Below, piece by piece: positions 1,259 to 22,734 of a stretch of 40,659 bases of DNA (positions within the stretch are counted from its first letter, which is position 1; each line of letters begins with the position of its first letter). The DNA comes from Rhizaria sp. SCN 62-66 (lineage: Eukaryota): contig MEDY01000283.1 in assembly GCA_001724265.1 (NCBI GenBank), positions 1 to 40,659 of the forward strand, read 5' to 3'. A program made the position numbers and the translations under genes. The notes under the pieces were generated by a model. The model did no database searches. It saw nothing but the letters and a program-made list of their open reading frames with translations, and had not been told where the DNA came from.

Positions 1259-1846
1259 ATGAGCGATATCTCATTTTCCCGTTGGGGTGCAAAGTACTTG
1301 ACAGGGGTCGCAGTAAACCAACTTAGGCTTCTCAACACAACCGTTGACGACGTCGTTTTATATGATCACGGGATATTGACCCATGCTGAAGCAACTATTG
1401 TGGCAGAGACTGCAGCCGCCGCTGCGGCCGCAGCCACCGCAGCTGCCCCAGCTGTTTCTGCCTCAGCTGCCGCTGCCCCCGCCTCTGCTGCCGCTGCGGT
1501 CGCAGCCCCGAAGGCCTCTGTAGCATCCGCTAATGTTGACACTCCATATACAAACACGATTGCGGCACGCACTCAAGCAAAGGCAGGTTTTCGGACTGCA
1601 TGGCGCGCGGCTGCAAGCAATAGCAACGACAATACTATCATGAGTAACAACAACGTCAGCGACGCCAATGATAACAACAGCGTTGCAGCGCGTCTCACAG
1701 AAAGTGACCGTATCAAGGCACTTTTCGTTGCTGCTAACGTTACTGCGGGGGTTTCTGTTGATGACGACGACGATGACGACGATGACGATGACGACGGCAA
1801 TGACAGCGATGAAGATCCTGTTAAAAGGGGTAATGGGCGTGTAACA
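1259..1846 (+). CDS. Ala/Asn/Asp-rich coding segment, probable upstream exon of the 2099-6001 gene
   Basis: Open frame with the same poly-A/N/D style as the tail of the downstream gene. A phase-0 GTACGT donor at 1847 and a CAG acceptor at 2111-2113, preceded by a T-rich tract, would join ...KRGNGRVT|GRRARSDEEIQ in frame. The 5' end is uncertain. Confidence 0.45.
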
Positions 1847-2098
1847 GTACGTTTCTACTCCTATACTTTTTAGATATGTATTGATTATTTTGTCAGTGTG
1901 TTGGTTTAGGTCTTACAGTATGACGACCTGAAAACACCTGTTCATATGTTTGCTTTATCTTATAGATGCAATGGTTTTTAACACTACATGCTCAACTTTA
2001 AATGAAGTTTCCATGCACTATCACACAGATTTACAACAAGAACAAACGAATCTCACGAGCAAAGTAATCATTTTTCCTTTGTATTTCATCACACGTAT

Positions 2099-5000
2099 AT
2101 GCTCGACACGCAGGGTCGGCGAGCCCGCTCTGATGAGGAGATTCAGGCCCAGATTGTTCGTGACACGGAAATTGCAGAATCAAATCCTCACAATCAAGAA
2201 GGAATACGCGCTAGGCGCCGCCTTGCCAATCTAAGCGATGCCGGCATGCACTCGCGCATGCGCCATAATGCAGTAAATTTCACCAAGGACAGACACGACC
2301 GTCTCTTACTGCGCGAGCGTGATGAGATCACCAGCCTACGCGACAGCGTTCCTGCGTATATTTGTGCTGTTGAGAAGCTTACTGATGCACTTTTACTTGA
2401 GAACAATGACGTTTGTACGCTAACCGCCGCGATCAACGTTGAGTGTGATGCTGCTGCTGAAGTTGCCGAGTGCGTGCGGGCTGACAACGTTATCGCTTGC
2501 TGCAACCATACCAAGAGCAAAAACAGCGCGTTCATCCTACAAGAAGGTGCTGAGATCCACCGCAGGTCTTCAGAGCGGGTGCGCACATATGCAGCTATTA
2601 TTAGCAAGCTTGCTGCGCTGCTAACAAGTGAGTGTGATTGCCGCACAGCGAACTCTACGCTACTTACTGAGGCCAGTACCACTCTCACTAGCACAGTCAG
2701 GGGCTCTATTGCATTCAGTGACTACCGCGCTGCCAAAATGAAGGCCATTGGCGAGTCAGCGATTGTAAACGAGTGTGCTGTTAACGCTGCCGCGGATAGT
2801 AAACCGGTATACGAGCGTGTGATCGAGGCTACGCGCACAACAGCAGACGCTGTGCGTCACGCCGCACAAGCAGCTGGAGCTCTTGTTGAGAGCTACAACA
2901 ACAATGTGGCTGCATTGAAGAGCTGTGCTGCTGCGCATGCGGCTGCATCTAATGTGATAATGGAGGGCGCACGCGCTCGCATGCCAATAGACGCTCAGGG
3001 TCGACGTAATAGCTATATCTCCAACGACACTGAGAAAGCAATGGCTATCATCAGCGAAACCGCTGTGAGTGACGAATGCAAGAAGGCGCATGTTGCGATG
3101 GGAACTGCTATGATCAACAGCGCAGCAGCACGCGCAATGGTGGCTGCTTCAATTGAGCACAGCGTAGCCGCTGCCATGGCTGAGTCTGACACGCACAACA
3201 TTACTATTGTCGCGCGCCAGAACCATGCCAACATCATCCCTCTCCTTGCACAGGCCCGCGTCGACTGGGGCAGTGCTTATGTTATCAAGGCAGCCGCTGA
3301 GGCAAACGCAACACATCTTAAAACAAACATTAATAACGTCACACGCAAGCCCCTTGGCATTGAGATGGTTGCAAATGCACGTACGTTCAACTGTAGTGGT
3401 AACGAGCTTGTCACTAGGACGCACCACATGTCAACAATGGCACTCTCGCTGCGGACTTTGACAAATTCGCGTGTGCTGGCCGTGGAAAATATGTATAAGG
3501 AGATGAAAGTTAACGCTGTACAGGAGATTTCCAGCCAGAAGGTACGTGAGTACAATAAGGACATGGCGGGCAAGGCCATTTCCAAACATCACGACGATGT
3601 ACTGCCGCATCATGCTGAGATTGTGGCGCGTGGGACGCCTGGTGTATTTGGTGAGGAGCAACAGATTCACACTCAGCACGGGTTCATGCATATTGCACGT
3701 GTGTATCACAAGCTGCAGCAAGGCGAGGAAGTGTTCGCTATGTGCTACGACACTGAGCTTAAGAAGGCTGTGTACAGTACCTTGCGCGTGAGCCAGTATG
3801 CTGGTCCCGCAAAGACTATGTGCATCCTGACTGCAGAGAACGAGAAGCGCCGCTGGCTTCCCGACGCTAACCGCTACGGCCAGACTGAACACTCAGCTGA
3901 TGACAGTAAGTCGCATCCACAGTCAAACTTTCTCTCCTCAGTGGTCTCTGATGACCTCGCCGTGTACGCGCAGATTGGCGTTGACTCAGCCCGCGGTGGT
4001 AAGTTTCATAGTGACTACCCGCACTAGGCGATCGCTGCTGGTGCCTTTGTTGGCAGTGACACTACTTTGTTGCGCATGCTGAGTGCTGCACCAAACGGTT
4101 ACGAGCCGCCACAGGGCTGCCCGTTCCGTCGTCAGTTCCTCGCTGAGATGCGCCGGCTGCGCTGCAAGAACGCAGCCAAGCGTCACCTCTTCCTGGAGCT
4201 GCTGGGCATGTGGCTAGGTGATGGAACTATGGGCTACAGTAACAGTCGCCGTGCTGTTCTTTTTGTCCAGCGCAAGGAGCGTGACATCAGCTTCATCCAA
4301 CGTACGCTATCTGCACTTGGCATCAAGCAATGGAAGGGTAGCAAGCAGCCTAGCCGTGACACTCACGGCTGGGCCATCTACAAACCTAATTGGTTCAGCT
4401 TTTTTGACCGCTACTTTGGAGATAAGTATAAGGAGGGTGCCACTGGCCAAGGAGTGCAACAGCGCGAGAGCCCGAAGAGCGCCAAAGGGGCGCTGCCTGC
4501 CTTTCTCCTCCTTGGCCTTACCAAGGAAGAGTCCAGGCTCGTGCTCAAGGGTCTCTGGCGTGCTGATGGTCAGAGTGCCGGCACAGGAGCGAATAAGATT
4601 TACACCAGCTCACGTGTGTATGTTGACAACATCCTGCAACTTGCGCAAAACGGCGGATACGGCGCGCGCTTTAACTTATCTCACCCCAAGGGCGCGTGCA
4701 GTGGGTTCACAATTGATGGAAGAACATACAGACTGCGTGAGTACGCGGAGCTGCCTCTTGAGATCAAGGCGGCAGCTAAGGCAATCGTTGCCACTGTGGA
4801 CGGCTATGCAGTGTGGTTTTCAGACGCAGTTAGCGGCAACACACTGTATCCTGCTATGTCGAGCAGCAGCATAGTCACGCGGAGGAGCTGTGACCGGGAC
4901 CGGCTTTGGGTGGTGGAGGTTGACCACACTGATCACATCGTTCTCACGCGCCGCGCCGCTGTCACCAGTATCAAGGGCAGGCGCGTCGTTTTCAAGGCCT

Positions 5001-6001
5001 CTCGCCCTGTGTTGGTCGGTGACTCAGTCAAGCTGATGAATGGCAGTCACTTCGGCGCGCGCCAGCTTGACGCCAACACCCGGAGCGAGGCCGTTGGTGA
5101 GCTGACCATCAAGATGGCTTACGACAACGACAGCAATGATGACGACGTTAATGTTGGCGCCTATAACAGGTACCACTTCCGTAACGTTGTCATTGTAGAC
5201 GACATCCCGCTGGTTAACGATGTCTTAGTCGAGTCCGATGAGGATATCGAGATGGACGGTGTTAGCCGCGACCAGGTTGAGGCGGCTGCTGAGGCTGATG
5301 ATGCGCGTCGCGACTCCGCCGAAGCAGAGTATGTGCGTCGTGTCACTGAGGCTAATGCTACAGAAAATGGTGTCGCTGTCACTGCTGAGACTGATACTTA
5401 TGCTGCCGCCGTTGCTGCTGCCGCACGAGCTGCCAACGCTCGTATTAGTCAGGCAGTTGATAACGGCACTAACGACATGCACGATGTTATCAATCGTATG
5501 AACAATAACAGTAACATCAGTGTCAACATCAACAGTAGTAATACCAACAATCATGGTACTGATAGTGATGCAATCGATCTTACTTTGGATTCCGACTCTA
5601 GTAATGATTACGATGATGAGAATGATGATGATGATGATGCTGTTGCGGCTCACTGTTTTCTGCATAGCAAGCCCAACGAAGTGCATGCGGCCGGACAAGC
5701 TCAGAACAACAGTGCCAGTGCAAGTGCTGCCACAGCTACATCACTATCAGCTGCAACGACCGCTGCTACTGATGTTGCTGCTGCTGCAGCTGCCGCTGTT
5801 GGTGCTGTTAGTTACGAGGATAACGATGACTATGACATTCTAAGTAAGCCTGTTGTTAAGCGCCCCCGTGGTCCCATTTACACTTACATGACTGCATATG
5901 GCGTTTACAGTAACAATAACCCTAGCAATGTCAATGGCAGTTTCATCAGCAAGAACAACAGTAGCAATAACAGCAACAATAACAAAAACAACAATATTTA
6001 A
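2099..6001 (+). CDS. Large hypothetical protein (~1300 aa): Ala-rich helical N-terminus, intein-like Hint/LAGLIDADG module, acidic/Asn-rich tail; one internal in-frame TAG
   Basis: ORFs 2099-4027 and 4067-6001 share one frame, separated only by TAG 4025-4027 and 13 sense codons. Intein-like blocks lie on both sides of the TAG. The gene ends in TAA. Confidence 0.75.
3644..5023 (+). mobile_element. Degenerate intein-like element (Hint domain + DOD/LAGLIDADG homing endonuclease), 460 codons
   Basis: Block A-like VFGEEQQIHTQHGF; block B-like LSSVVSDDLAVY; LAGLIDADG motifs FLELLGMWLGDG (4190-4225) and VLKGLWRADG (4541-4570); block H-like IYTSSRVYVDNILQLAQNGGY; block F/G-like LWVVEVDHTDHIVLTRR...ASRPVLVGD|S. 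Confidence 0.8.
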
Positions 6002-6083
6002 GAATAACAACGCGAATAAGAAGGACTGTGAGAGGTACTCTATTAAAACATTGCCAGTTACTGCCAGTTATATGTACATATCT

Positions 6084-6170
6084 TAGTTAATAGCACGTTA
6101 GACTGACGGTGCGACGGCTTTAGGCGCCGTTTTGTTTTCGGACGCGCGGGTTCGGGTCCCGTCAAACTCA
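6084..6170 (+). pseudogene. tRNA-Leu (anticodon TAG) pseudogene / tRNA-like element
   Basis: D stem GCA/TGC; perfect anticodon stem ACGGC/GCCGT with loop TTTAGGC (TAG 6121-6123); long variable arm GTT-TTCG-GAC; T arm GCGGG-TTCGGGT-CCCGT; discriminator A followed by TTTTT. The acceptor stem pairs only 4/7 and the D and T loops deviate from consensus. Confidence 0.65.
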
Positions 6171-6556
6171 TTTTTGCATCCCCGTACTTGGCCACTTCGG
6201 TACAGCCGCTTTGAGAAAAAGCCTACAATTTGCAGACGTTCGACCGTCTCGACGCGACAAACGCGATTTTTAGATTACTTAGTCCATAAATCGGATAACC
6301 AAGTAGGAGTCAAGATAGACAGATTCATTTGTAAACTTGATGCATCAGGATCTCTCGTTTTTTAACTATTCAAATCTGTTTTAATTTTTTCGAGTGGTAC
6401 CAATGACGGGGTATAAAGACATTCTCAAAAATCGCAGGAGGTGAAGAAAAAGTTGTTGTATTACTGGTACCAGTATGTTTTGTCATGGAGACTGTCATGG
6501 AAACTGTAGACTTTGATTTAATGTTAAGCTTTTGTCACGTAATATAATACTGTATC

Positions 6557-7096
6557 TTGTTACAATCGCCATTCTGCATAAAAATCCCTTCGCACAGCAA
6601 ACCACTGTGAAAATCGCCACCCAACAACCATGGCCGCCGTAATATTAGTAGTGTTTTCCTGTGTACACAGACTTCTCTTTTCTGTGAAAACAACAATAAC
6701 AATTTATGATATCAGAGACACAGTATATAATTCGAATTATATACTTGGTTCTTATCGTTTTCATAGAACAAGAGAGTCTGTGTTCACAAGAAACGCCATC
6801 TTTATATCGCGGCCGGAAATTGCTGTTGATGAAGGGAATTTGATGCGGTGGTATTTTCTGTGTACACAGACTTCTGTTTACTGTGAGAACAACAACAACA
6901 ACAATTATTCATATCAGATACACAGTATATGGGTCGGATTATATACATCGGTGTTGTTGTTTTCATAGAAAAGAGAAGTCTGTGTTAACAGAAAACAGAA
7001 GTGTTGTACATAAGAAACACCGCCTTTATATCGCGGCCGGCAATTGCTGTGCGAATGGGATTTTACCATGGTTATGCAGAATGTCGGTTGTAACAA
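6557..7096. mobile_element. Non-autonomous TIR/foldback (MITE-like) element
   Basis: Imperfect TIRs at 6557-6600 (TTGTTACAATCGCCATTCTGCATAAAAATCCCTTCGCACAGCAA) and 7044-7096. The interior is two ~200-bp tandem units, each palindromic. 6665-6696 and 6954-6985 are inverted copies at 31/32. No target-site duplication identified. Confidence 0.7.
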
Positions 7097-7273
7097 CATC
7101 TTTTCTGGAAACTCTCGGGTTTGAAGAATTCTTCATCGCGCAAGGGCGTGAGCGGCAGACAGACTAATACACATAAATACGAACTCAAGAGATTGCTCAT
7201 CGAGATTAAAAATGTGCCTCAAAAGTAAAACCAAGCACGCTGATGTAAGAAAGGCACAATGTGTACTCATCCC

Positions 7274-7520
7274 TTGTTACGCGCGACATTTTACATAAGG
7301 ACTCTCTCACAGGAAAACCACAGATAAACGACACCCAACGACCTACAAAGGTCCGGATCCAAGGGTGGTGTTTTCTGTGTACTCACACAGAAGGAGATGC
7401 CGTTTCTCTGTGGAGTCAGTGATATAATTACTGACTGTGGTTTTCCTGGGCAAGTCCGAGGTTTTTACATGAGGAGCAAGTCGTGGAATTGTGCAAATAC
7501 ACATTTAAAGAATGTCAGTT
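7274..7520. mobile_element. Degenerate second copy of the same TIR family
   Basis: TTGTTACGCGCGACATTTTACATAA (7274-7298) and AGAATGTCAGTT (7509-7520) resemble the TIR. There is an internal perfect 14-bp inverted pair at 7310-7323 / 7435-7448. Confidence 0.5.
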
Positions 7521-7938
7521 CGTCCACATGTTGTCCACTGCCATTTCGTTCTGTCAAATCCGAATGTTAATTACATTTAACAAAGTTGCCATAATAGTTT
7601 TCGATATCTTCATTATACATCATACTCAATCCATAAACACTATCATCACACAAAATCGCCGTCGTGTTTGTCCGCAAATGGTTAGCAATATCACATTAAC
7701 ACATGTGAGACGTTTGATCCCACGCGGCGGCCTGCATTTTTATCGCAATTGCAATAGCCAATACAGTCCAGAACGAGCAAGATTATAGCGGGTTTCATCG
7801 CTGGTATCCTCTGTTGATGAACGAACGTCGATGACAAGCGAACTGGCATTTCGATAGGTTGATGAGGTTTTTTTTTTGTGTTGTCAAAAAGTGTCTTGGA
7901 GCCCGGCTTTACTGACTATTCACGGCGAGACATATTTC

Positions 7939-8896
7939 TCACTGCAGGTGGCCGAGCAGCGCCGTGGTGTCCGCCTTGACGTTGTCAATGCGCTCTGCCG
8001 AGAGCGAGAGCGCGGTGGAAGCGGCGCCGGTGACGGGGACAGCGAGCGTGGCGGTGACGCGCGCGAGCAGGGCGATTGTGCCTGCACTGGCGAGCGCGGC
8101 GCCGGCGCGCTGGGCGGACAGAGGGGCGCAGCGCGATGCGAGGGCGGCGGCAGCGTCGCGGGAGAAGATGACTGCACTGGCGTTGACGCTCCTATAGAAC
8201 CAAAAAAAGGTCAAAAATGAAAGCAAGAGTGATGTCGTATTCGGCATCGAAGCAAGTCATCAGAGCAAGAGAGAGCGCCGTTACGTACCCTCCGAGCGCG
8301 GCAATAAAGGGTTCCAGCGCGACTTTGGCGGGCCAGGCGAGTTGGGTGCGCACGGTGCGTTCGGGGACGCTGGCAGCGCCAGCGACAAGCGCGGCGACGC
8401 GTGCGATGCGTGCGAGCGTGGGCAGGTCGTCGAGGCCACGCTGGAGCGCGGCGCGTTCGGCGGCGGTGCCCAGGGCGTCGGCGAGGGCGTCGCTGGGCGC
8501 GGGCCAGTGGGCGAGCGCGGCGGCGGCGTGCGCGGCGGCGGCGTCGGCGGTGGAGAGGTCGCCGGCGGCGAGCCGGGAGGCGATGTCAGCGAGCGCGGTC
8601 AGAAGGGGCGCAAGAGCGGGTTCGATCGGGGCCGGGGCGCCGCGGCGGTCAAGCGCGGCGGAGGCGAGCGGGTACTGGTGCGCGTTGATGAGCGCAAGGC
8701 CTTGGAGCGCGCGGGTGAGGAACACGCAGTGCTGCGGGAGGGAGGAGAGCTCGGCCTCGGTGAGGAGGTCCGCGACAGCGCCCCAGGAGCGGGTCTGCGC
8801 GTGGGCGACAACGCGCGCGGACAGCTCAGCGCGCGGAAGAATGGCCGGTTCGGAGAGCAAGTCAGGCAAAGGACCAGTGGTCGTCGACGCCAACAT
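7939..8896 (-). CDS. COP9 signalosome subunit 8-like (CSN8/PSMD8/eIF3K family) protein, 2 exons (8896-8289, 8191-7939), ~286 aa
   Basis: The splice joins ORFs 8192-9085 and 7939-8247 in frame (GG|G). N-terminal RSWGAVADLLTEAEL and C-terminal LSAERIDNVKADTTALLGHLQ-TGA resemble CSN8 ends. The similarity is weak and by eye. Confidence 0.5.
8192..8288 (-). other. Spliceosomal intron (97 nt)
   Basis: GTACGT donor, T-rich tract, TATAG acceptor; removal restores the reading frame. Confidence 0.85.
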
Positions 8897-9502
8897 AGCC
8901 GTTCTATACGAGGACGAAAGGGGAGGAGCAACGTTAGGTCCGTGCAGCAACACCGCTAAATGATTACGCAGTGATTTTTCATGTGTCCGTCGCGTTTCGC
9001 TAATTGAGCATGGTGACAACCACAACTCGTCTACAATACTGCTATGCTGTGATATACCGACACATTTCGAGGAAGACAGCTCCAAGGAAGATAGGCGTCA
9101 CATCAAGACTCAACCACAACGCTATTTCGCATTCTGAAGAGTATTCCTAAAAGTTGAACCGTCAACCGTAGTAAACTAAACCGAAAAATATCCAGATCAG
9201 TTCGTTTGACGATCATAGACGTGCTACAGCGTGCTTTGAAGTTGGACCTCCCAGATCCCGCAAGCTCCACCACAAACGCTGATTGCAAGACATGACTGAA
9301 GTTTATTTATTGGTTGATTTGTACAGATTCATGTGACACATTTTGCATACAAAAGCACGTGAGACACAATTCACTCACATGCATTTGGCCACACTCGGGA
9401 AAATCCTTTTGATAAGTGGTTGTATGCGTCTCTATCGTCAGAATTCAATAGTACGTAGTACGTATAGGTGCGTTACAATCACAAGGCAGCATCCGCAACA
9501 CA

Positions 9503-9879
9503 GTTACAACCGACATTCTGGTGTTTGCCCCAGTGTGTGAGACTTGGTATAGATGCAGTCGAGCTTGACACCCACGCTGATGACCGTCAATATGAATTGT
9601 AAGATCAACGTCGGCCTTTATCTGATCGACAAGCGCACTGACGTTAGAGCAGCAAGCGCAGTCTCGGGCACAGCGGCGCCAGTGCGGCTGGTGCGAGTGC
9701 TCGCAGCGGTGCTGAGCTCTTTGACGATGACGACGTCGGTATCATCGCCGCTCGCCTCGTGCTGACGCGCATCAGGGCGCGTATCTGTGCTCCCATGTGT
9801 ACTTTGACATTGGTGCTGGTTGATGCTAATGTGTCTGTGTCAGCAGCCAGTGTATTTTATGCAGAATGTCGGCTGTGAC
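9503..9879. mobile_element. Third TIR-family copy enclosing a GC-rich gene-like fragment
   Basis: GTTACAACCGACATTCTG (9503-9520) and CAGAATGTCGGCTGTGAC (9862-9879) are inverted at 16/18. The left one is the exact reverse complement of 7077-7094. Confidence 0.55.
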
Positions 9880-9980
9880 AGCAAAACGTGTGATTACAGA
9901 GCGGTACAGACAGCACAGAAGCGTACAATATCCGCGACACGACTCAGTTCAAGCTTCTACCACGCATATCATAGAAGACC

Positions 9981-12645
9981 TCACGCAAACCAGAAGAACT
10001 GCGCGACAAAGACGAGGGCGACGATCCCGGCCGAGAGCTGCGTCACGAAGGGCGTGCAGTTGCGGTTCACGTACCCCACGGCGCCGTGGTTCTCGGCGTA
10101 GGCGCGCTTGAGGTAGCACGGCAACGTCGGGACCCAGACGTCGTCGAGCGACTCTGCGCTGGCACTGCTCGTGGTGTTGCTGGAATTCGTGTTGGGAAGA
10201 CGTAGCATGAGTCCGGGGTCGAGCACGGGCGGCAGCCGCTGCTTCTTCTCTGGCGCCGACTCGAAGTAGTCCCTTGGCCCGGCCGCCGCGGCCGCCGCGG
10301 CGACTGCGGCGTCTTCCTCGGCCTCGTCCTCTGCGCTCGCGTCGACGCCGGCGGCATTGCGGCGCAGCGGCCAGAGGCGCGCGGGCACGAGAAAGGCGTC
10401 GACGGTGAGCGACTTGTGGTCCGAGGCGGCGTAGTCGTCGTTGCCGGTGCGCGCGGCGACGGCGGCCAACCCGCGCGCAAGCAGGTGGTCGAGCTTGCCG
10501 TGGAACCAGCCGCGGTAGTTGGTGAAGGTCTCCGTTTCGGGCGGGAACACCTCTTCGAAGCCGGGGTTAGTGAGTGCGGCCCACGGCAGGGACAGACGCA
10601 CCGGCGCCGTGTCGCTGTCCTCGGGCACGGCCGCGGCGACGGGGGTACTTACACTCAATGTAAGGGGCAGCGCGGCGACGGCCTCGGGCTCGGGCACAGT
10701 GTACACACGCGCGTCAGTCTTGCTCGCACCGCTGCTGCTGCTGTTGGAGAGCGTGAGAGGGAAACCGGTGCAGACTGTGACGGTGCGGCCGTGGCCGTAG
10801 CCGGCGTTGCGCGGGGTGCTGAGATACCGCGGTGCGGGGCCCAGCAGCTCGCCCCCCTTAGACTTGCCGTCGCCGCCCTTTGACGCGGCGGCGTCCCACT
10901 GGGCGACCGTGAGCACGCCGGTGTCGGGCAGCGCGTCGTTGCCCTTGCCGTTGTTGGTGTTGAGGGGCACCACAAGCAGCGGATCGCGCAGCCGCTCTTC
11001 GACCAAGTTGCTGATGAACTCCTCGTTGCTCGCAGCATCAGCGTCCGCATCGTCGTCCGCGTCATTGCTGTCCCTCTTGTCGCCGTCGTCATTGCTGTTG
11101 TTCATGGCGGCGACCTTGAGCGCAGCGTTGTACTGCCGCTTTCGGCGCCGTGCCTCGGCGTCGCCGGCCAGCAGCTCCTCGCCCAGTCCGCGCACGCGCC
11201 GCGCCTCGCGCGCCGCGCGCGCGTCGTCGTAGTCGTACTGCGCCCAGACGTGCGCCGCCAGCCACTCGGCCTCGGCCCAGCCCAGTGAGCGCCAGCGCTG
11301 CGCGTCGCGCGCGTACGTCGCCGAGTAGCGCGCCAGCGAGTGCGCCAGCGTGTTGAGGTCGCCCGCAAACACCTGGAAGTGCACCGGCGCCGACGACGCG
11401 CGCGGGGCAGTGCCCGGAGTAAAGCGCAGCGTGGCCACGCGCTCAGAAGTCAAGCCGCCTGCAGTTGCCGCGTCACTAGTGCTCTTGCTCTCGGTGTTGG
11501 TGCTGGTATTAGCGCTGGCGCCGGAGCCCACGGGGGTGAGGGCGGTGGCAAGCGCGGGGTTGAACATGACGCGTGCGTGCTGTAACACGTCCGCGATGAC
11601 GTCGAGGCGGTGCGTGAGCCCGCAAAAGGGCTCCGCGTGCGCCGTGTAGGCAATCAGGGACACGCGCGGGCACGCGTCCACCTCGGCCGCGCTCGGAACT
11701 GCGTCAGTTGCGTTGCTGTTGTTGTGTGCGAGCAGCGCGTCGTAGGCCTCGAGCACGGGCCCCGCGGCAAGCGCGACGGCGGGCGGAACGTACGTGTGCC
11801 TGCACTGCGCTACCACAATTTCCGCCGCGGCGAGCTCGGCCGCCGCCGCGCTGTCCTCGCTCTTCTTGCTCTGGCTCTTGGTGACGGTGAGCGTGAGGGC
11901 GCGGCAGAGCGCGGTCGAGAGCGCGGACGTGTCTGCGGCGAGGTAGCGCAGGGGCAGCTCGATGACGGCGCCGAGGGTCAGGCGGCGGCCAAGGCGGGGC
12001 TCGTTGCGGCACGCGCCGTCGCGGGGCCAGTGGTAAGGCTGAGATAAACAAAAGAAAGAAACAACAAGCGAGACGAGGCATGAGAGCTTCAGAGACGATA
12101 TAACAAGGCGTTGAACAGGCAATACAGAGAGTATACCACAGAATGAGCGATGACAAGGCGCGAACACGAACCTGGCAGCGGTGGTCGATCGAGTGCGCCT
12201 CGCGGAAGTCGAAGCGGGAGAGCACACCGTTGCCGTGCACGCCGTGGAGCTTGCGGCCGCGCGCGGAGCCCAGCTCGACAAACTCGAGCTGGAAGAGGTA
12301 GTTAAGCCCCAGGGCCTTGGCAACAGCAACGCCAATGTCGACGCCGGCGCTGCGGTCGCAGCCGGAGTCGATCTCCTGCAGACAGAGGATGTCGGGCGCG
12401 GCGGCGCGGACGGCGGCGATGATGTTGGCGGCCTGGATGCCGCGCTCGATGTTCCACGTCATGACGCGCAGAGGGCGCACGGATCCGTCGGCAGAAGGGC
12501 GCGGAAGGTACGCTTCGGCACGCTGAGCAGGAGTGCGGTAGTCAAGGTGTAAAACGTCACCGGGAGCGAGGTACCTCGCGCGCTCGGCATCATCAATATC
12601 TTGCATCGATGCTGCTATACGAAACGTGAGATTGGACAATCGCAT
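9981..12645 (-). CDS. Endonuclease/exonuclease/phosphatase (EEP) family protein, 2 exons (12645-12172, 12038-9981), ~843 aa
   Basis: Ordered EEP motifs LRVMTWNIERG, PDILCLQEID, GNGVLSRF, AGDLNT, KLDHLL and SDH. The intron joins HRCQ|PYHW. Ends TGA. Alternative start ATG at 12606. Confidence 0.9.
12039..12171 (-). other. Spliceosomal intron (133 nt)
   Basis: GTTCGT donor, pyrimidine tract, CTCAG acceptor; phase-0 removal joins two EEP-motif ORFs. Confidence 0.85.
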
Positions 12646-13640
12646 GGAGAGATATTATTAAGGATTTAGACATGTAACAACACTTAAATTACTATTTCGA
12701 TGTCGGAGCCTCATATTTACGACCGGGTATTGTGTTACAATGTTACAAAAGTTTGTCTCGTCAGCGAAGGGGCCGACAGTTTCCGAAGGGTGACTGTGAA
12801 CACACCAGTTCCTTTACTTGTGCGGATATCACACAGTTTTCAAAGAATCACTGCGTTATCAATGCATTATTTTGATATTATATATTATTTTCAATACTAT
12901 GAAGTTGTTTATTGGTGTAATCGAACAAGTTCTTGCGATATGTCGACTTGAACATGTCTGTCTACGCTCTCACAGATGCACAACAACGCGTTAAAAAGCA
13001 GTACATGTCGCGCAAATTTGTTGAAGAGAGCGTTTTCAAGCTTTAGAATACTCATCTCATTCAATTCACATAAGTTTGGCGCTTGCTAGGACAACACCAG
13101 GCGGGGTTGGCGCCCGCCTAGCTCTTGAACATTAAGTACGAATCATACGCATAACAGTCGAGACGAGATCAGGCTTTCATTGTGATAGAGTGTGTAAACA
13201 GGGGCGTCTTTAAGTAAATCTAGCAAATTCGCTTCATAACTTGAGTGATCAGCGCAAAACTCCGCAATTTTAGTCGGCTGGCGAACTTGAAGAGGCTGCT
13301 AAGTGCCGGTACTTCGTGCCGCTCAATAGTCGTGCAGCTGCATACAGCACAAAGTCGTGTAAGCATTAAGCGCAGCCGACACATTGATGAAGACACACCT
13401 AAGCATTATATTGCGCAAGCTAACACTTGAAAACAGGCAACAGCGAAGCCACAACATGAGTTGGTAAATGTAAGTACCCCCTACGGCTCCGGTTGAGCAA
13501 GCGCAAAATGCAAGCCAGAACGGCCAGTAGCACAACACTAGTTTGATGTATTCACAGGACTGAACGCCATGTTTCAAAATGCAACACAAGCAATAAGATA
13601 CCACAACTTACATCATTTATTTTCTTAATTTGATTTTTAG

Positions 13641-16600
13641 ATGGACATGCGTATACATAGTCTACGCGGACAGAACGTGATGCATTCTCCCAACAGCTCG
13701 ACAGAGGTTGCCCCACTGATGTTGTCTTCGAAGTTCCCTCGTCACCTGCCCATGTTCATGCACAACAAGGCATAGAACTTGCGCGAAAAGCTGCTCAGGC
13801 AAGCTAACGCGGTGTACAAGCACCGCTTTGAGCTTTTACAAGACCCGTACGTTCACTCCTACATGCACACTGTCTCCAACGCCAAACCACCACAACTTGT
13901 TTTTCAAGTTAACGTCGTCCTCAATTTCGGCATGTTTTAGCCGACATAATGTAAAATGGAATGAACTCAAATCCCAAACACCATACTCTGAAATTATTCA
14001 TTTTTACAATGGTAGACGTCGAATGTCACTCAACTATGTTTCTGGGATGATTACTTCAAGTGGCATGTTCGCGGAGAGTACATTTCTTGAAGTCTATCTT
14101 TATAGTTACTCTTAAAATACCAATCGTCCAAATATGCAGGCTTGTGTTAAAAGATGCTTTCTCATGTGTTGCTCAATTCATTTGCTTTCTTTTCTGTCAC
14201 ACAGCCATGCTTCAACGGACATTATGGCGCTTGTCGAGCAACATGCAACTCTGCTCACGTTCCTCGCTTCAGCACCGCTTCATGAGCCCTCGGCGGTTGC
14301 CCGCGCGCACCGCGAAATTGCCCGATTTGCGCGTGCCCATCCGACGCTGTTTGCGCGCACGGCGTTTGTCTCCGCACTCCGCACGAGCGACGTTGTCATT
14401 GTTCTCAGCGGCATAACCACTAACGAGAGCGTTCAAGCGGATGGTATCAGTTCCAGTGACGAGCTAAGCGCAGAACTGTCGCAGTACGTTGCTGAAACGA
14501 AATAGCTTCGCGATAAAGCTGTGTTTTGCGCGCTGAGGAGTGATGATGCTGTAGGGCGCATTGCGGCTCGCGTCAGTAAGCACTGGGGGGAGGGGAACAA
14601 GCAGATTCCCATGGTTCTTGGTAGCAGAAGCCAGGCTGGTGATGACTATGAAAACTCTGTTAGTTCACACACCTCCGTAGTCTTAGTCACGGAGGAGTCT
14701 GCGGCGCAGCAGCTCTCGAAACAGCCATCCACCCACTCATGTCATCAGCCACAGCATTCATTGCTGTCGTTGCAACAAAGCCTTCATCACACGCGGCTAC
14801 GTGTGTCCTCTTTGCTGATGCAGCATGCACCACAGTCACGCCTTGGCCACTCCGAGCCGCACCCCTTTATGCACTCAGAGTTGCCCAGCCCGTTCACCGA
14901 TCAGCAGCACCACTGCTTGAAGTCTCCGGTTGCTTACCTTTCTTGCGCACGCACCGTGGCCGTGTGCCCTTTACAAACACGCCTGATCTACGCTTCCAAG
15001 ACAACTGTCCTTAGCGCTTTCTATGCGTTTATTGTCAAGTCGCTCCAATCTACTTACGACAGCTCTCGCGCTCATCCGATGCTTGCACAGAACAGAGTCA
15101 CCTCTCGCGGTGCCGTGGTCTCTGGTGCAGTCTTGGGTTGCGTGCTCTTAGATTGCGAGTTGCTTCTGACTCTTCCAGGTGTTGCACTTGCTAACATTGC
15201 TGCCGTCAGCGCGGGCCGCGGTGTGCGTGTAGTGGTTGTTGCCCGCAGCGACGCAGAAGCGTCCGAGTTAGAGGCGCTGTTTACGGCCGCGGGAGCGCGC
15301 GCGCTAGCTGCTGACTGCCTTACAGCTGCGGCCGAAACTGCCGACATCGCCACACCTGTTCGCTTTGGCGCGCCTGTGCGGACTGTGGTGCCAAGAGAGT
15401 TTGTTGTCAACCGCGTAACACTGCCTCGTTGTGCCAGCACAGCGGCAGGATTGAAGGAGACATGTTCTTTTCCCACTAGCAACGGAGACGACAGGGCAAA
15501 CACTAAGCTTATGCAGAGCTCTGATTTCGCAAAGCGCTTCCAGGTTTTGTCTCACGCTGCAGCGAGTGAAAAGAACGGCTTGGCTAAGCGCCTTTCGGGC
15601 TTGCCCAGCGCAGCAAGTCTCCCGACATCGCTTGCGCCGCAGTCACCTTTAACACACGCGTCATTCGTGCTGCCAGAGTCTCAGTCACACACACCTGAAC
15701 AGCTCCACGGACTCACCGCGGTTAGGCGCGTGGTGTTACCGCCAATCCCCACAGACGCTTGCTCAAGCTGCAACGCCGTTCACTGTGATTGCGCGATCAC
15801 CAGCCTTGATAACAACGGCGAGGATGACGACGGAGCTACGCTGGTATTTACTGCTAGCGACAGCGACAACAAAGTCAGCACTCCCAGCTCTCATCGCTGT
15901 ATCTGCGCAATTGGTGGCGACTGCAGCGACTGCGCGACACGGATTACGACAGAATTTGCTCGTTCACTCAAGCGACTCAACGATCCAGCTCCGACTAACA
16001 GCGACAGCGATGGGGTGTGCGGCTGCGGCGCAAGACGCTGCGAGGGTGATTGTGAGTTGTCATTTGCCGCTTCAGGCCATCTCCCGTTGGCAATCTCAAA
16101 CAGCTTTGATGCGTGGGCACTTGCCGGTAGCCGTAGCTTTGGCGCATGTGAGACGGAGTGCGGCAGCAACAGTGGCGTGTTTGAGACGCAACGCAACGCA
16201 AGCCAGTCGTTTGACAGCGTTGCAGGGTATCATCTTCCTGCAGTTAACACTGAGGTTGAGGGCAGTGTGCGCAGCAGGCGTGCTATGACTATTGTGCACA
16301 ACGACAATAGTGATAGCGATGACGATTGCGTGCACATGAAGTGGAATAGCAAGAGCTTTGAGCTGAGCACGACAGAAGCCCCGCCGTTTACCGTTTCATC
16401 TTCAGCAAAGCCTGTGATGGCTACAGCCACGGCTGCCCCAGTAATTACAGCACCGTGCAACTGGTCGGTACGTGATGTCGTGCTTACAGTTACAGCACTC
16501 TTACCCTGGGTCCGCGCTGTCTACTTACCTCAAGCTGCCGGTGCACAACGGCACAATCCCACCTTGTCTTCTTGTTGGGGTTGGTCAAGGGATGTTGTCA

Positions 16601-17934
16601 AGACTGCGACGAACGAGCTTGCTGTCTTAGGTGCAATTGCTGAGGAGGAGCAAGTTAGTGTTGTCGACACATTTTTTGCACGCACCTACAACATTGCATC
16701 AGAGCTTCAAGGTCAACAAATGGCTCCAATTTCAACAGTGAGCGTAACCGCCGCCGCTAAAGCAGCTGCAATTGCATCCTTGAACATCACTTCGTCTCCA
16801 GTCACCGCGGTTTCCTTGACGGGCGCTCTGGCCCTAACTGCAGGCTGCTCTCTTGAGGTCGCACGCATTGCACTTGCTGGTTGCGGTGCGCATCCGCTCG
16901 CGCCGGTGTCCACTGCCCTGCTTCTCGCTGCGCTTGTTCACACACAGCAAGAGTGCGCCGCTAGTGGCAACGTCTATGGGTTAGGTTATGGCAGTTTATA
17001 CAACTCACTGCAAAGCGTGACAGCGTGGCGTGACACAAAGATCGCTCTAGAGTCGGCGCCGCAGGGAGACAACGAGAAGAGAGATGCAACCGCTGCAGCG
17101 GCAGCTAACGTGTTATCATGTATCGAAGAACGCTCAGGCATTTCATCCACAAGCTACGCTAAGATCTTGCGTACTGAGCGACATTTCGAATCTGCGCTCA
17201 ACCAGGCGCTGGGCTGCTTTGGCGTTTCAATGGCAACTACGGCCGCTGCATCGCAAGTGACGGCGGGTGCTGTGGGCAGCTGCATTGCGTACGGCTTCTT
17301 TATGAACGCAATGCGTCGCGTTACGCCACGCTGTGTCGACACTGACGCGCTCACGCTTGGACTCCGACGCGCGAGGTTTGCAGCATTCACTCCGCCGCTA
17401 AACACAGGCGCAAAGACTGGAGCACGCGCGGTCAGTGTGCTGGACTGGCGCAAGCGCGCGTACGGTGACATAAACACGTCGCCCACGTCTAACATGGCAG
17501 CGAGCTCAACTCTTACAGATGCAAGCAGTATGTAGATTCGGACACCGTCACCGATGGGCAACTGCCGTTGCCATGCACATTTCCAAGTTGAGACCGAACA
17601 CACTGCAGCGCTGGGCGACGCAGACAATTCAAAATGGGCTGTGTATACAACTGCGCGTGTGCACACAGTCAACACATATGAGTCAGACTTTGTGGACTGC
17701 ACGCTGAGCGACTGCGAGCTATGCTTCGAGGGAGAGCGCGGACTGGTGTTAGTCGACACGTTTACGCCAGTCACACTACAGGACTTGCTAATAGCTGCTT
17801 CACAAACGACATGCGCATCTTCAAAAACACATTTGGACAGCCATGTTTCTTGTGATACAAGCTCACAGACAGAGCGCCACCTTAACGCGGTGCACGAACA
17901 TTTCGTGCGCTGTGATAGTTTTATCTACATTTAA
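13641..17934 (+). CDS. Hypothetical protein (~1310 aa) with Cys-rich clusters; probable exons 13641-13846 and 14205-17934; three internal in-frame TAGs
   Basis: ORFs 14134-14505, 14521-17535 and 17554-17934 share a frame, broken only by TAG 14503-14505 and TAG 17533-17535; the gene ends in TAA. GTACGT donor 13847 and CACAG acceptor 14204 join FELLQDP|HASTDIM in frame. The upstream exon has TAG 13773-13775. The 5' end is uncertain. Confidence 0.65.
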
Positions 17935-18352
17935 GAGAGAGCGAAGACATCGCCCAAACAATAGTTTTACTATAATCAAAGATATCACCACCAACAACAT
18001 AATAGCTACATTTTTTTCTTTTTACTGGTACCGCTTGATGCGCATCACAGTTCACCAAACATCACCCAATCTACTTTTCATGTGTATATCACCCAGCAAT
18101 AACAAACCCATTTTATTTTTTGAAGCGGGAATCACATGTGTCTAAATATCACAAAATCTAAGTATCTCACTGTTAAAACAAAGTCTAAGTAAGCCAACAC
18201 TCGATGCAATTTCATGCACCCACTATTTCACCAAACAATAAAGCTCCCGTACTTACATCACTGCTTGCTGAGACAGAACATGAACGCTGCCTACACAGAC
18301 AGGCAATTCACGATGGTAGTTACTGCAGAATTGCCACGGTCACAGCGCCTGA

Positions 18353-21300
18353 TTAAGGCTTCCACCACATCCATCCCTGCGCGTCAACAGGCCAGAACCG
18401 CACACCAACGGCCATCTCGTTCAAGTCTTCACTGCGACGCCATCCACTGTTGCTGATCTTTCGCCCGTGCACACTCTCAGCACGCGTTACATCCAACGTG
18501 TTCGCGCTATTTCCGCTGCCTAAGCCCTCTGTCTCGACACGGGGGTCGGTGCGCGGACTCCATAGCAGCGGCCTGCGCTGGCCCGCGCGCGTGTCAAGCA
18601 TCGGCACCAGCGCGTCCGTGCTCCCCGCACAGCCCACGGCGCGCACCGAGGTACGCGCCTTGTTGCGCGCCCAAAGCTTCGTCTTCATCGCGTGGCCATT
18701 GCGAATTATGACATCCCCGCCGTTGCGCAAACGCGCGATGGCGAGAGCCCGCGCCTCCCAAGCGTCACCTGCGGCTGCCCTAGTTGCAGCGACAACGGCG
18801 GCGGTCTCGCGCGGTCCGGCCAGCCGCACGCGCACAACAGCGCGGTCCCTACGCGGCTGCTGCAGCGCTGTACGCGTGACGGTCAGCAGCCAACGCCGAG
18901 CAACAAATGCGCGTGCAAGAGACGGAAACTGGGGTGCGAGCACTGCATCCGGGACAGTCACAGTTCGGTCATCAAATGCATTACTCTTCCAATAGGCAGC
19001 GTGAGTAGCTGCATTGTCAGTCTCTGGCATACGCGCTTCAGCGGCGCTCAGCGGACGAATCACTAGCATAAAGTCAAGCTCTTTCGCGTTGCTTAGACTC
19101 TCACAATCGGAGTTGTCACTATTTTGCGCCTCAGCGGGGAGTGCTGAGATGTGGCAGCCGTGAACAATGCGGGCGCTGCGAAGCGAATTCGCGGTATCGG
19201 ACTGCTTTTTCTTTTTCTGTTGCCGATCCGCATCGCTTGCATTAGTACTCACATAGTCATCACATGTATCTGTACCGTGATCGTTTTCGGCTTGCGGCAG
19301 CTTCTGGCTCCACTGCAATCCATCAGCGCGCAGCAAGTGGGAGAAAAAGTGAGTTCGGAGTGCTGACACAGCCTCAGCACGCGGTTGGGTCGCGGCTGCA
19401 GCGACAACTGCAATCGCCCGCGACAGACAGCCTTCAAGAAGAGCTGTTGATACAACCGGCTTTTTCACTGATGTTGCCCCAGCTTCAACATTCGGCGGCG
19501 TCTGCGCAGCAATTGCGTGCAGCAGAGCGCGCGCAGAAATGAACACATGCCCATGCGGCGACACAACCACAGAGTGTGCAGACAGCAGAGCGCCAGTGGC
19601 GGCAGTGAACGCTGCAGCGCGCCGCGAGAGAGCAGCCACGCCCGCCGTGAGCGTCGCCGCAACAGCATCATGACTGCTCTCACGCACAGCCTCGGAAGTG
19701 GCAGCGCTGGCCGAGGCGCCGGCGTGTTGCGGAATGGTCGACGGAAAAAGCGCGAGGCGAGCGCGAACTCGATCAAACGCGAGGTTTGCGTTCGAAGGGT
19801 CTTCAACCCACTTCGACTGCACAGTGCGGGTGCCATCTGCGTCTGAAGCGCTTGCATTGCAGTCAGACTCGTCGCTGCGCAGACTGTAACTGCTAAGTGG
19901 TGATGACGTTGTCAACAACAAGCGACCGTCAGAGGCCCACTGCGCATGCACAACAACTGCACTCACATTGCCATTGTCAGTTGCAGTATCAGAGTCTGAG
20001 TTGTAGGCGACATGAACATTGGGGTCATTGCTAAGCATGCGCACAATCCGGTCTTCAAGAGTTGCGATGAGACGCTCTTTGCTAAACCCAAGGAGCGGCC
20101 GTAACACGCGCACGCGCGGCAACACACCCGCGCTCTCGCCACCACCACTATGACTGCCGGAAACACCACCGTAGCTCTCTGTAGCACTCATCGTCGCCGA
20201 GACCGCGCGCGCAAGCAGCGCCGGCTCCCGCGCTGCAGCGTACACGAACCCCCCGTCCAGCGTTCGCGGGGTTAGCGCGCGCACCCGCGTCGGCGCAATC
20301 ACGGTTGCGCCCGCGACAGCGACTGTGGCCGCGGCGGCGGGGCCTGCGAGGCCAGGCAGCGCAGAGCCACGCAGCAGACGCATCAGAGTCGTTTCAACGG
20401 CGTCCCCGCTGTGGTGGCCTAAGCACAGCGCCGGGAGAGCGCTGGTCACGCTGCGCTGCGCAACATCTCCCGCTATTATGGAAGCCGTTGTTGAATGCGC
20501 CGCCGCTGTCGCTGCGGCCGCGGCCACGTTAGCATCCGCAGCTGCGGAGTCCGCAGCAGTGCGCGCAACGCGGGCGCGCAGGATAGCGGCCCGGGCGGCG
20601 GGCGACGGCGACGCTGCACCAGCAACAACAGCAGCAGCCCCTGCGACAGAGCTATCTGACTCAGCGACCGCACTGTTGTTGCGCGGTAGCGGAGAGTACT
20701 GCGGATACAAGACCCTCGCCTCGGCCTCTGCAGCTTCGGCTGCAGCGTCAGCGGCTTGACTAGCCTCCGCGGCCGCCGCCGCAGCAGCGGCTGCAGCTCG
20801 CCACAGCGTCACAGCAGCGGCGTCAGCGGCGCGGGACTCAGCAATAGCATCGCCCGCGGCTGCGGCTGCGGTGGCGTTCGTGTCGGGCCCTGCAGCGGTG
20901 AAGTCAGCCGGGTCAACCGCGCTCTGCAGATGACTAGGTGCAGCATGTGCTTGACTGCAAGACGACTGCACGTAGCCATGAGCATCATGGTTAAGCGCTG
21001 GCTCAATGTAGACTCCCCCGTCGACGAATGCGCTCACCACACGGCCCTGTGACAGCGATTTACTATGGGCAAGCGTCTCCGCTGGCAGTATGTGGCCGCT
21101 GTTGCTGTCGCTATCCGGCAGCGGTTGCGGCTGCGGCTCCGGCAACTGCGCCGCATACAGTTGACGCGGCGCTGGCGACTAGGACGCAAAGGGCGGCGGC
21201 GGCGGTGTCACAATAAACGGCAACAACGCGCTGTCATCGTCAGTGGCACTCACGGCCCTGGGAGCCACAGCAGCGTCAGTGCTGTCAAATCTGTCATCGT

Positions 21301-22366
21301 CGTCAGACAACAAGCGATGCGACGTGGCGGCGTCTTGTTCTGCGCGCTCCAAACGCTCTGAGCGCTCTGCGCGGGCTGCCGCCACCGTCGTGTATCGGTC
21401 AGGCCGCGCCTCGCCCTCCCCTTCCAGGCCTTCACCAAACTCGTCCTCGGGCTGCTCACTCGCTGCCCCAGTCCGCTGCAGCCACTGCCACTGGCGCTGC
21501 CGCCGCCCGGTCCGGCTGTGCTGGCCGACTTGCGGCGCGCGCTCCTCCGGCGTGGCGCGCGGCGGCCGCGGCCAGTGGAGCGCACACACGTGCTGCAGCA
21601 GCAGCGCGCGGCGCCGCACGCGGGCCGCGGACTGCAGCGACTTGAGGCTCGGCCGCGGGGGCAGAGCGGGCGGCGCCGCAGACCGTGCTGTCGCTGTCTG
21701 AGAACGGGACGCTTGGTCGTCTTCTGTAGCGCTGTCCGCGTTAATGCTGCTCACGCTCTCGCCCCACTGCATCGCGAGAACGTCGGTCTGGAGGCCCGCA
21801 GAGCGCAGGAAGCCCGCGACGGCGGCCGCCTCGGCGCTAGCCTCCGCGCGCAGCCCGTGGTCGACGACGGCGGCCCTTACACTGGCTAAGGGTACGCAGC
21901 TGTGCGCCCATTCGTGGAGGAGCAGAGCCAGGGCGAGGGAGTCTGCGCCACCAGAGACTGCGGCGACGATCAGTGGTGGAATGTTGCTGTTGCTGTTGTT
22001 GCGTCCAGCGTCACTGGTGTTCGAATCGTAGGAAAACAGCGCAGTAAGAGCCTGCGCAAACTCTTGCGGAGTAATTGGGGCGGCTGCCTGCAGCGTAGCT
22101 GACGGCACTAACAGCGGCGCGGTTTCACGCTCAGCGGCAGCGGTTACAGTGTGGGCTGCACGCGTCGAGTGAGAGTACACCTGGCACGGCAGTTGGCGCA
22201 GGGAGGGAGGCGAGGACGCAAGACAGCGGAATGACGCACCCAGAGAGCTGGATAGCACTCCGCGCCTGTTAATTCTAGTGGAGGGGTCCGTCAAACTGCG
22301 TGGTGCACTCAGAGTGACGATGGAGCGCGTTGCGAGGCGACGCGCCACAGCAGAGACGCGCAGCAT
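18353..22366 (-). CDS. tilS: tRNA(Ile)-lysidine synthetase (TilS/PP-loop), probably mitochondrion-targeted, ~1337 aa, one internal in-frame TAG
   Basis: AVSGGADSLAL, VDHGLR and QSAARVRR lie before TAG 21179-21181. GHHSGDAVETTLMRLLRGS, LRPLLGFSK and WVEDPSN...FDRVRAR lie after it in the same frame. Arg/Ser-rich, acid-poor N-terminus MLRVSAVARRLATRS. Ends TAA. Confidence 0.9.
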
Positions 22367-22734
22367 CAGGCAGTTGATGCAGCGCTTCACGACTTGGCGC
22401 GATTTTTCAAGCTATAAAGAGGCAATGAAAACATGACAGACAAATAATAGTTAACAAGCAAATGGACGTCTAAATCTGCCCCCAACAGCCGTTAATATCC
22501 ACGAATTGTTCGAGTTGGCGATAATTATCTTTTCTGATGGAGTGTTGAGGTGTGAGCCCGCCTCTTGCGAGTCCACTTCCACATTGTGTGTCACCTCACA
22601 CCATCCGTAAATATCGATATAACAACAACCTTAAGTTGTATATTTATCGCGAAATCTTGAATCCATTTTTCAATTTTAATCTAACTTTGATTGCCATTCC
22701 CCACACTCATTTTTATCTCCCCCAGTGGGGACTC
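22367..22734. promoter_or_regulatory. Putative bidirectional promoter region between tilS and MCM9
   Basis: 368-bp AT-rich spacer between two divergent ATGs. Inferred from position only; no motif identified. Confidence 0.45.

Follow-up and report, generated by a model that had tools for sequence, protein, structure and literature searches.

The stretch of DNA analysed here (the window: 40.7 kb, positions 1 to 40,659 of contig MEDY01000283.1 in assembly GCA_001724265.1, Rhizaria sp. SCN 62-66) raises the question of whether its organism translates the stop codon TAG. The window is eukaryotic, with GC-rich coding DNA (the G+C share at third codon positions, GC3, is 0.8-0.95 in conserved genes) and AT-rich spacers, and three of its open reading frames (ORFs), P0001, P0002 and P0003, are interrupted by isolated in-frame TAGs. 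The original prediction, made from the sequence alone, had taken five such TAGs as a sign that UAG had become a sense codon, probably for glutamine, with UAA and UGA kept as stops. We found that the TAG pattern is genuine rather than a product of assembly, that in-frame TAG is avoided like a stop, and that the link between the TAGs and splice-donor hexamers is statistically strong. Our tests lean against a full, established reassignment of UAG, and the claim of a reassignment is not established. The explanation that we tentatively prefer, with rather less than even confidence, is that the code is standard and that four TAGs lie in in-phase introns or in coding segments undergoing intronization.

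Isolated TAGs in three open frames

P0001 (2099-6001, forward strand) is an ORF of 1300 codons with a LAGLIDADG_3 match, P0002 (14224-17934, forward strand) is an ORF of 1236 codons without a family assignment, and P0003 (22366-18353, reverse strand) encodes a TilS-like PP-loop protein; each ends with TAA. All five TAGs were recovered at the predicted coordinates with the predicted flanking peptides, and the bases that follow them (+4) are G, A, C, A and T, as had been claimed. The first, at 4025-4027 on the forward strand, lies in P0001, 55 codons 5' of the first LAGLIDADG motif. Two are in P0002 on the same strand, at 14503-14505 (codon 94) and at 17533-17535 (codon 1104), the latter followed by 132 more open codons up to the TAA at 17932-17934. 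The fourth, at 21179-21181 on the reverse strand, falls in P0003 within an insert of about 440 residues that separates the halves of the PP-loop domain. The statement that the TAGs lie inside open coding frames thus held for four of them and failed for the fifth, at 13773-13775 (forward strand), which had been placed in a predicted exon. We dropped this site, as its coding context is unsupported: the flanks are open for just 44 codons (P 0.16) and 54 codons (P 0.10), the short frame contains three TAGs, the region has no Pfam match above threshold and RNA-run depth at the site is 0.

Apart from the TAGs the three genes are free of stops, as predicted, with 0 TAA and 0 TGA in 3873 codons; base composition predicts 19 TAA and 15 TGA in these codons, and the other frames of the same genes contain dozens of them. 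The frames are open for 673 codons upstream and 657 downstream of TAG 4025, 129 and 1009 around TAG 14503, 1009 and 132 around TAG 17533, and 410 and 941 around TAG 21179. The chance of such flanking stretches at the four TAGs, given local base composition, ranges from 7e-3 to 5e-17, and for P0002 these open-frame statistics are the sole evidence of continuity across its TAGs. In P0003 continuity is also seen in profile matches. On the read-through protein PF01171 reaches 75.7 bits; its profile positions 2-73 match before the TAG (40.5 bits) and 98-133 after it (39.1 bits), each half above the cutoff of 27, and TIGR02432 matches on either side with positions 2-70 and 100-132 (38 and 44.9 bits, both below its cutoff of 93.6). 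P0003 has both features sought in a TilS protein, an N-terminal PP-loop ATPase domain and the SGGxDS motif, present as SGGADS. Judged from these matches, a single gene spans the TAG in P0003.

It is therefore very improbable that the TAGs simply end shorter genes, with the following frames being separate genes or open by chance, since one PP-loop domain cannot span two genes and chance does not readily account for the open stretches. Prokaryote-style gene callers do split the frames in this way (P0069, P0070, P0072-P0074): public gene calls break P0001 at TAG 4025 in at least 4 assembled contigs (P0069, P0070), public protein collections hold P0001 and P0002 split at their TAGs, and a Met is found within 7-45 codons after each TAG. 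Yet in all four cases the second frame would follow in the same phase and with zero spacing, whereas intergenic DNA in the window is AT-rich and hundreds of bases long.

Assembly error, which the original prediction had named as a possible source of the TAGs, is contradicted by other contigs. Contig sets X2 and X3 show 0 differences from the window across all five sites, including 0 differences in the contig at 3000-4967 that covers TAG 4025; their contig tables are identical and possibly represent one data set, and they are therefore counted once, X2 being from the same study as the possible source of the window. Set X4, from a separate study (2025) and a slightly different strain, retains the TAGs at 13773, 14503 and 17533, and its contigs over these sites differ from the window only at 14552, 14806, 14920 and 16810 (record 21 keeps TAG 14503 and has its 3 differences elsewhere; record 23 keeps TAG 17533). 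The X4 contig over 4025 carries 104 differences, of which 22 are listed.

The same comparisons bear on whether the TAGs could be plain nonsense mutations, in which case P0001 (as a selfish intein-like element), the orphan P0002 and P0003 would be recently broken or dispensable, transcribed but truncated. TAG accounts for 0.49-0.52 of the single-base routes to a stop from the codons of these genes, so that the restriction to TAG is weak evidence, and four TAGs of four would have P about 0.06. Loss of function would also fit the lower GC3 of the three TAG-bearing genes (0.59 against 0.80 in the others), the search of 1.84 billion representative proteins in which P0002 gave 3 matches, all to its own pieces, and the position of the strain differences in P0002, 4 of 4 of which fall at codon positions 1 or 2 (phase assigned by hand). 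We nevertheless regard decay as improbable. The genes show no frameshift as well as no TAA or TGA, so that decay would have to be very recent and to have run in parallel in three neighbouring genes; P0003 retains its SGGxDS motif and the downstream PP-loop matches; and of the 22 listed strain differences (of 104) in the upstream half of P0001, 12 fall on the third base of a codon, suggesting that purifying selection acts there. Nonsense mutation would moreover leave unexplained the splice-donor hexamers described below.

Splice-donor hexamers and possible in-phase introns

Each of the four in-frame TAGs is preceded on the coding strand, 5-72 nucleotides (nt) upstream, by a canonical 5' splice-site hexamer. 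These are GTAAGT at 3999-4004 (forward), 26 nt 5' of TAG 4025; GTACGT at 14484-14489 (forward), 19 nt 5' of TAG 14503 and identical to the donor of a sure intron; GTATGT at 17528-17533 (forward), 5 nt upstream of TAG 17533 and overlapping it (GTATGTAG); and GTGAGT, 72 nt 5' of TAG 21179 on the reverse strand. Using a strict set of donor motifs (GTRAGT, GTAYGT and GTTCGT), which occur 36 times in 32,205 coding-strand bases, a hexamer lies within 72 nt upstream of 4/4 in-frame TAGs against 10/125 off-frame TAGs (binomial P 4e-5), and within 26 nt of 3/4 against 4/125 (binomial P 1.3e-4). The strict set was picked after the sites had been seen and the values for the loosest motif, GTNNGT, are therefore safer (P 1.6e-3 for 72 nt and 5e-3 for 26 nt).

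The organism has GT-AG introns. A sure example of 133 nt (12039-12171, reverse strand; GTTCGT...TCAG, T share 0.44-0.45) divides the Exo_endo_phos (exo) gene, whose domain is split between two frames. A second intron, of 97 nt (8192-8288, reverse; GTACGT...ATAG, T share 0.40), was recognised by a change of frame, composition and signals, without homology support, and its acceptor is the apparent TAG stop at 8194-8192. A third candidate, of 72 nt (1847-1918, forward; GTACGT...ACAG, T share 0.49), would contain the TAGs at 1871 and 1907; if it is not an intron, the small acidic ORF at 1259-1873 (forward) ends at TAG 1871.

In the explanation that we tentatively prefer, the four TAGs would sit in short phase-preserving spliceosomal introns, or in segments that are turning into introns. 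An acceptor placed a multiple of three bases past the donor would remove the stop and preserve the frame, and the raw DNA would for that reason read as one open frame with a single TAG. The usage of the donors and their pairing with acceptors are the inferred part of this explanation. The best candidate is a 75-nt phase-0 intron at 21179-21253 (reverse) with the GTGAGT donor and a pyrimidine tract share of 0.80, in which TAG 21179 itself would be the acceptor. The GTACGT at 14484 has in-phase acceptors 93 and 141 nt away with a fair pyrimidine share (0.60-0.67), and for the GTAAGT at 3999 the only in-phase acceptor up to 260 nt away that leaves the LAGLIDADG motif intact is a weak one at 177 nt (pyrimidine share 0.40). 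In favour of splicing, the codon-usage score of the 15-25 codons after the donor at 17528 falls to the 8th-16th percentile of the gene. Mini-introns running from donor to TAG (29, 22, 8 and 75 nt) were considered and rejected, as 3/4 would break the reading frame and 8 nt falls short of a workable intron length.

Several observations weigh against intronic TAGs. The better acceptors at the 4025 site are out of phase, and the in-phase acceptors at 17533 are poor (60-96 nt away, pyrimidine share 0.40-0.67). The segments that follow the donors have a T share of 0.19-0.26, compared to 0.40-0.49 for the sure introns together with the T-rich candidate, and their codon-usage score over 15-25 codons is typical of the gene at 3/4 sites (43rd-87th percentile). 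Record 32 of X5, a polyA-RNA contig set of the same strain as X4, covers 21196-21446 at depth 3.1 and is unspliced across the donor at 21253, terminating in a CCG repeat 15 nt before TAG 21179; we take this contig for RNA because 8/8 of the X5 pieces listed map to coding DNA, with depth 0 in the spacers. No spliced junction was found at any of the four sites among the contig joints listed. RNA contigs drop rare forms, the X5 pieces listed hold no positive control for splicing, and the missing RNA-run cover at 4025, 14503 and 17533 is evidence neither way. Finally, four in-phase introns that each contain a single stop are unlikely unless derived from coding sequence. Taken together, the counter-evidence suits coding segments being recruited as introns better than it suits old introns, and it fits translation of the TAGs equally well.

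Precedents exist for both kinds of arrangement. In the introns of Yarrowia, as described in the excerpted part of PMC2911113, a phase-0 layout with a TAG acceptor yields an in-frame stop, and the model in the excerpted part of PMC9612004 has short coding segments, a multiple of three in length, gain a premature stop while becoming introns; exitrons, in the excerpted part of PMC4484396, are a further comparison for in-phase segments that bear stops. The segments in the window resemble the Yarrowia introns and the intronization model in having canonical donors 5' of the stop and lengths that would be multiples of three. The candidate at 21179 shares with Yarrowia the TAG acceptor that reads as an in-frame stop in phase 0, and the coding-like composition is what the intronization model would expect of segments recruited from exons. 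They differ in that no splicing was seen in the window, the RNA contig over the best candidate being unspliced, in the weak acceptors at two sites, and in number, as four cases in about 11 genes would be unusually many.

Gene ends and the avoidance of TAG

According to the original prediction nine genes ended in TAA or TGA and none in TAG. Nine ends are indeed of this kind: TAA closes five (P0001, P0002, P0003, the PIP5K gene and a RACK1-like fragment) and TGA four (the exo gene, the MCM9-like gene, the MIP channel gene and, after its intron, the gene at 8990-7939). The absence of TAG ends did not hold for the whole window, in which 9/11 ORF ends are TAA or TGA and 2/11 reach a TAG first. In the partial ORF at the left edge (3-140, forward, frame 3), which has no family match, the first in-frame stop is the TAG at 138-140, and in the ORF at 1259-1873 it is the TAG at 1871-1873. 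Both tails have a second TAG within 12-21 codons, so that if TAG were never a stop each would run through two TAGs in that space. Both are apparent C-termini, and TAG 1871 may instead lie inside the candidate 72-nt intron. The further claim that a TAA sits at the conserved C-terminus of RACK1 was borne out in part: a TAA at 40538-40536 does end a WD40 repeat (40658-40536, reverse), but the window holds only this last repeat, a 40-residue fragment that scores 26.5 bits against a cutoff of 27 and that we take to be RACK1 from its C-terminal motif.

Within genes TAG is rare. Position-specific base frequencies predict 37.0 in-frame TAGs in the three TAG-bearing genes, where 4 are observed, and 64.2 in the other 6731 codons (MCM9, PIP5K, MIP, exo and others), where there are 0; the conserved MCM, PIP5K and MIP genes accordingly have no in-frame TAG. 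Scaling CAG by the TTG/CTG ratio gives expectations of 38.7 for the three genes and 37.7 for the others. Overall, 4 in-frame TAGs stand against an expectation of about 76-101, a deficit of about 25-fold. The admission in the original prediction that no TAG occupies a conserved column also stands, as alignments to Pfam and NCBIfam profiles cover 0/4 of the sites.

These counts bear directly on translation of the TAGs, which we consider unlikely, though a serious candidate. UAG would then be sense inside genes by way of a suppressor transfer RNA (tRNA) or efficient readthrough, in a young, rarely used or context-dependent change, and may still end some genes. Translation explains at once the four lone TAGs, the 3873 codons clear of TAA and TGA and the frames open for 129-1009 codons on both sides. 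It is also consistent with the coding-like DNA around the TAGs, with the nine clear gene ends at TAA (5) or TGA (4), with TAGs that are fixed in contigs from runs of 2016-2025, and with the RNA contig that continues unspliced to 15 nt before TAG 21179. This TAG lies between the halves of one TilS PP-loop domain, and both parts must for that reason be made as one protein. The under-use of TAG and its absence from the other 6731 codons and from conserved columns argue in the other direction, as do the two ORFs that hit TAG first and a second TAG 12-21 codons on. Translation also leaves the association with donor hexamers unexplained (P 4e-5 to 5e-3), and ARAGORN finds 0 tRNA genes in the window, which likewise has 0 Rfam matches.

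A reading that we find rather unlikely takes the organism, an uncultured and deep-branching eukaryote from wastewater, to be in an early or context-dependent phase of changing the meaning of UAG. In such a phase weakly constrained genes would contain a few internal positions where UAG is decoded as an amino acid, the codon would still be largely avoided and perhaps still end some genes, and the organism would represent a living "ambiguous intermediate", with UAG uncoupled from UAA. In Condylostoma, Parduczia and Blastocrithidia in-frame stops are frequent, whereas TAG here is nearly as avoided as TAA and TGA. Context-dependent stop codons have been described in these three (background in the excerpted part of PMC5304391), and the likeness would lie in a codon that is sense internally and a stop at gene ends, which would fit the two TAG ends in the window. 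The excerpted part of PMC5304391 further reports 384 in-frame UAGs in 71 genes of the rhizarian exLh (UAG=Leu) and 204 in 126 genes of Iotanema spirale (UAG=Gln), with UAG at no gene end in either according to that part, and 82/86 hyperconserved UAG positions in exLh corresponding to Leu. The window is like both in that only TAG interrupts frames while TAA and TGA end nine clearly delimited genes. It differs from both in that the TAGs are far sparser, with 4 in about 10,600 codons and about 11 genes, and in that two further ORFs reach a TAG before any other stop, and from exLh in having no TAG in a conserved column.

The TAG-bearing genes, their neighbours and the organism

The LAGLIDADG_3 match of P0001 scores 24.3 bits (cutoff 22.5). 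At bases 3999-5530 (residues about 630-1145) the core of a LAGLIDADG endonuclease is joined by a C-terminal block (WVVEVDHTDHIVL...VLVGD/S, the slash marking the junction), and this part is 31% identical over 186 residues to the C-terminal part of an intein-like insert in P0071, an H+-pyrophosphatase fragment from another metagenome that ends in ...VIVGN/TKAADVGAD. On the basis of the endonuclease core and the resemblance to the P0071 insert, P0001 may be an intein-derived or HO-like element in a protist nuclear gene. In its LAGLIDADG_3 match and its likeness to that insert it resembles LAGLIDADG inteins and HO-type endonucleases, and it differs from LAGLIDADG inteins in giving no match to the Hint family on either side of the TAG (E up to 1) and in its C-terminal junction, which is GD/S compared to GN/T in P0071; Hint domains flanking the endonuclease together with the junction nucleophiles, the marks of an intein, were thus not found in P0001. 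A protein search with P0067, run for P0001, returned 2 matches to its own pieces and P0071; we discarded a global alignment of P0067 with P0071, in which the motifs were out of place. The AlphaFold model of P0067 has a mean predicted local distance difference test score (pLDDT) of 32.4 and, being uninformative, was not used either. Solved structures searched by sequence gave nothing usable for P0067 or P0068, and for residues 500-642 of P0070 the structure atlas gave a best feature score of 0.76 and template modelling (TM) scores of at most 0.36, all below threshold. Between X4 and the window 104 of 3010 bases differ over P0001 (3068-6077; 3.4%) and 1 of 1538 and 3 of 2308 over P0002, so that the intein-like gene is far more diverged between strains than its neighbours.

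P0002 has no Pfam family and is transcribed at least in part, as X5 contigs cover 14157-14401 and 15825-16074. In P0003 both X4 (DNA) and X5 (RNA) carry a 9-base in-frame insertion at 21269, inside the long insert, which is a frame-keeping length polymorphism. The N-terminus of P0003 (22366-22250, reverse) is a leader rich in Arg, Ser and Ala (MLRVSAVARRLATRSIV...), which resembles a targeting peptide for an organelle and would fit a mitochondrial or plastid lysidine synthetase.

To the right of P0003, the MCM9-like gene (22549-30429, forward) ends with TGA and encodes a helicase drawn out to 2626 codons by long low-complexity inserts, with GC3 of about 0.9 in the conserved core, falling to 0.35-0.65 in the tail. 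A GTGAGTAG motif at 30337, 92 nt upstream of the TGA and where GC3 falls, together with this drop makes a 3'-terminal intron possible. A search with the MCM9 core gave 62 protein matches, of shorter lengths, the best at 36% identity over 34% of the query, and none at near lengths; with the best relatives only 36% identical, it has no close relative on record. The genome and viral contig collections yielded only archaeal and viral MCMs (29-43% identity) for the same core.

The PIP5K gene (37833-30835, reverse; 2332 codons, ending with TAA) has a strong PIP5K domain (185.8 bits) and, at its N-terminus, weak matches to 7tm_1 (17.9 bits) and PUA (21.8 bits) that are both below cutoff, and may encode a receptor-PIP-kinase fusion. 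Such fusions are known from oomycetes and Dictyostelium. The MIP channel gene (39839-38583, reverse) ends with TGA, as do the exo gene (12645-9981, reverse) and the unnamed gene at 8990-7939 (reverse; TGA 7941-7939), each of which has one intron.

The AT-rich spacer at 5600-7650 contains dispersed and inverted repeats of about 45-106 nt, at a contig depth of 60-330 in DNA runs compared to about 6 for unique genes. Their probable source is a small mobile element present in many copies in this genome, or else DNA that other organisms have in common with it; searching viral_contigs and genome_contigs for an exact 22-nt stretch of the repeat gave 0 matches in each. Scanning metagenomes with the first exon of the exo gene gave 7 loci, one of them a 1195-nt piece of window DNA and the next-best at 43% identity, and in the three contig collections scanned no further contigs of the organism were found beyond that piece.

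Window DNA recurs in bioreactor, wastewater and activated-sludge runs of 2015-2025, and in one assembly its genes lie on a contig of 108,477 bases. With the organism recurring in bioreactor and wastewater data sets over these years, the question of how its TAGs are read is answerable from existing samples. If TAG is translated, the window would represent a further nuclear change of UAG without UAA, caught while the codon is still rare, and would bear on the routes by which stop codons are reassigned. If the TAGs are instead spliced out, as we tentatively prefer, the four coding-like, stop-bearing segments beside donors would be a compact example of the passage from exon to intron. In-phase introns, including one whose TAG acceptor reads as a stop, would then mimic a change of the genetic code, a caution for code-inference scans of metagenomic eukaryote contigs.

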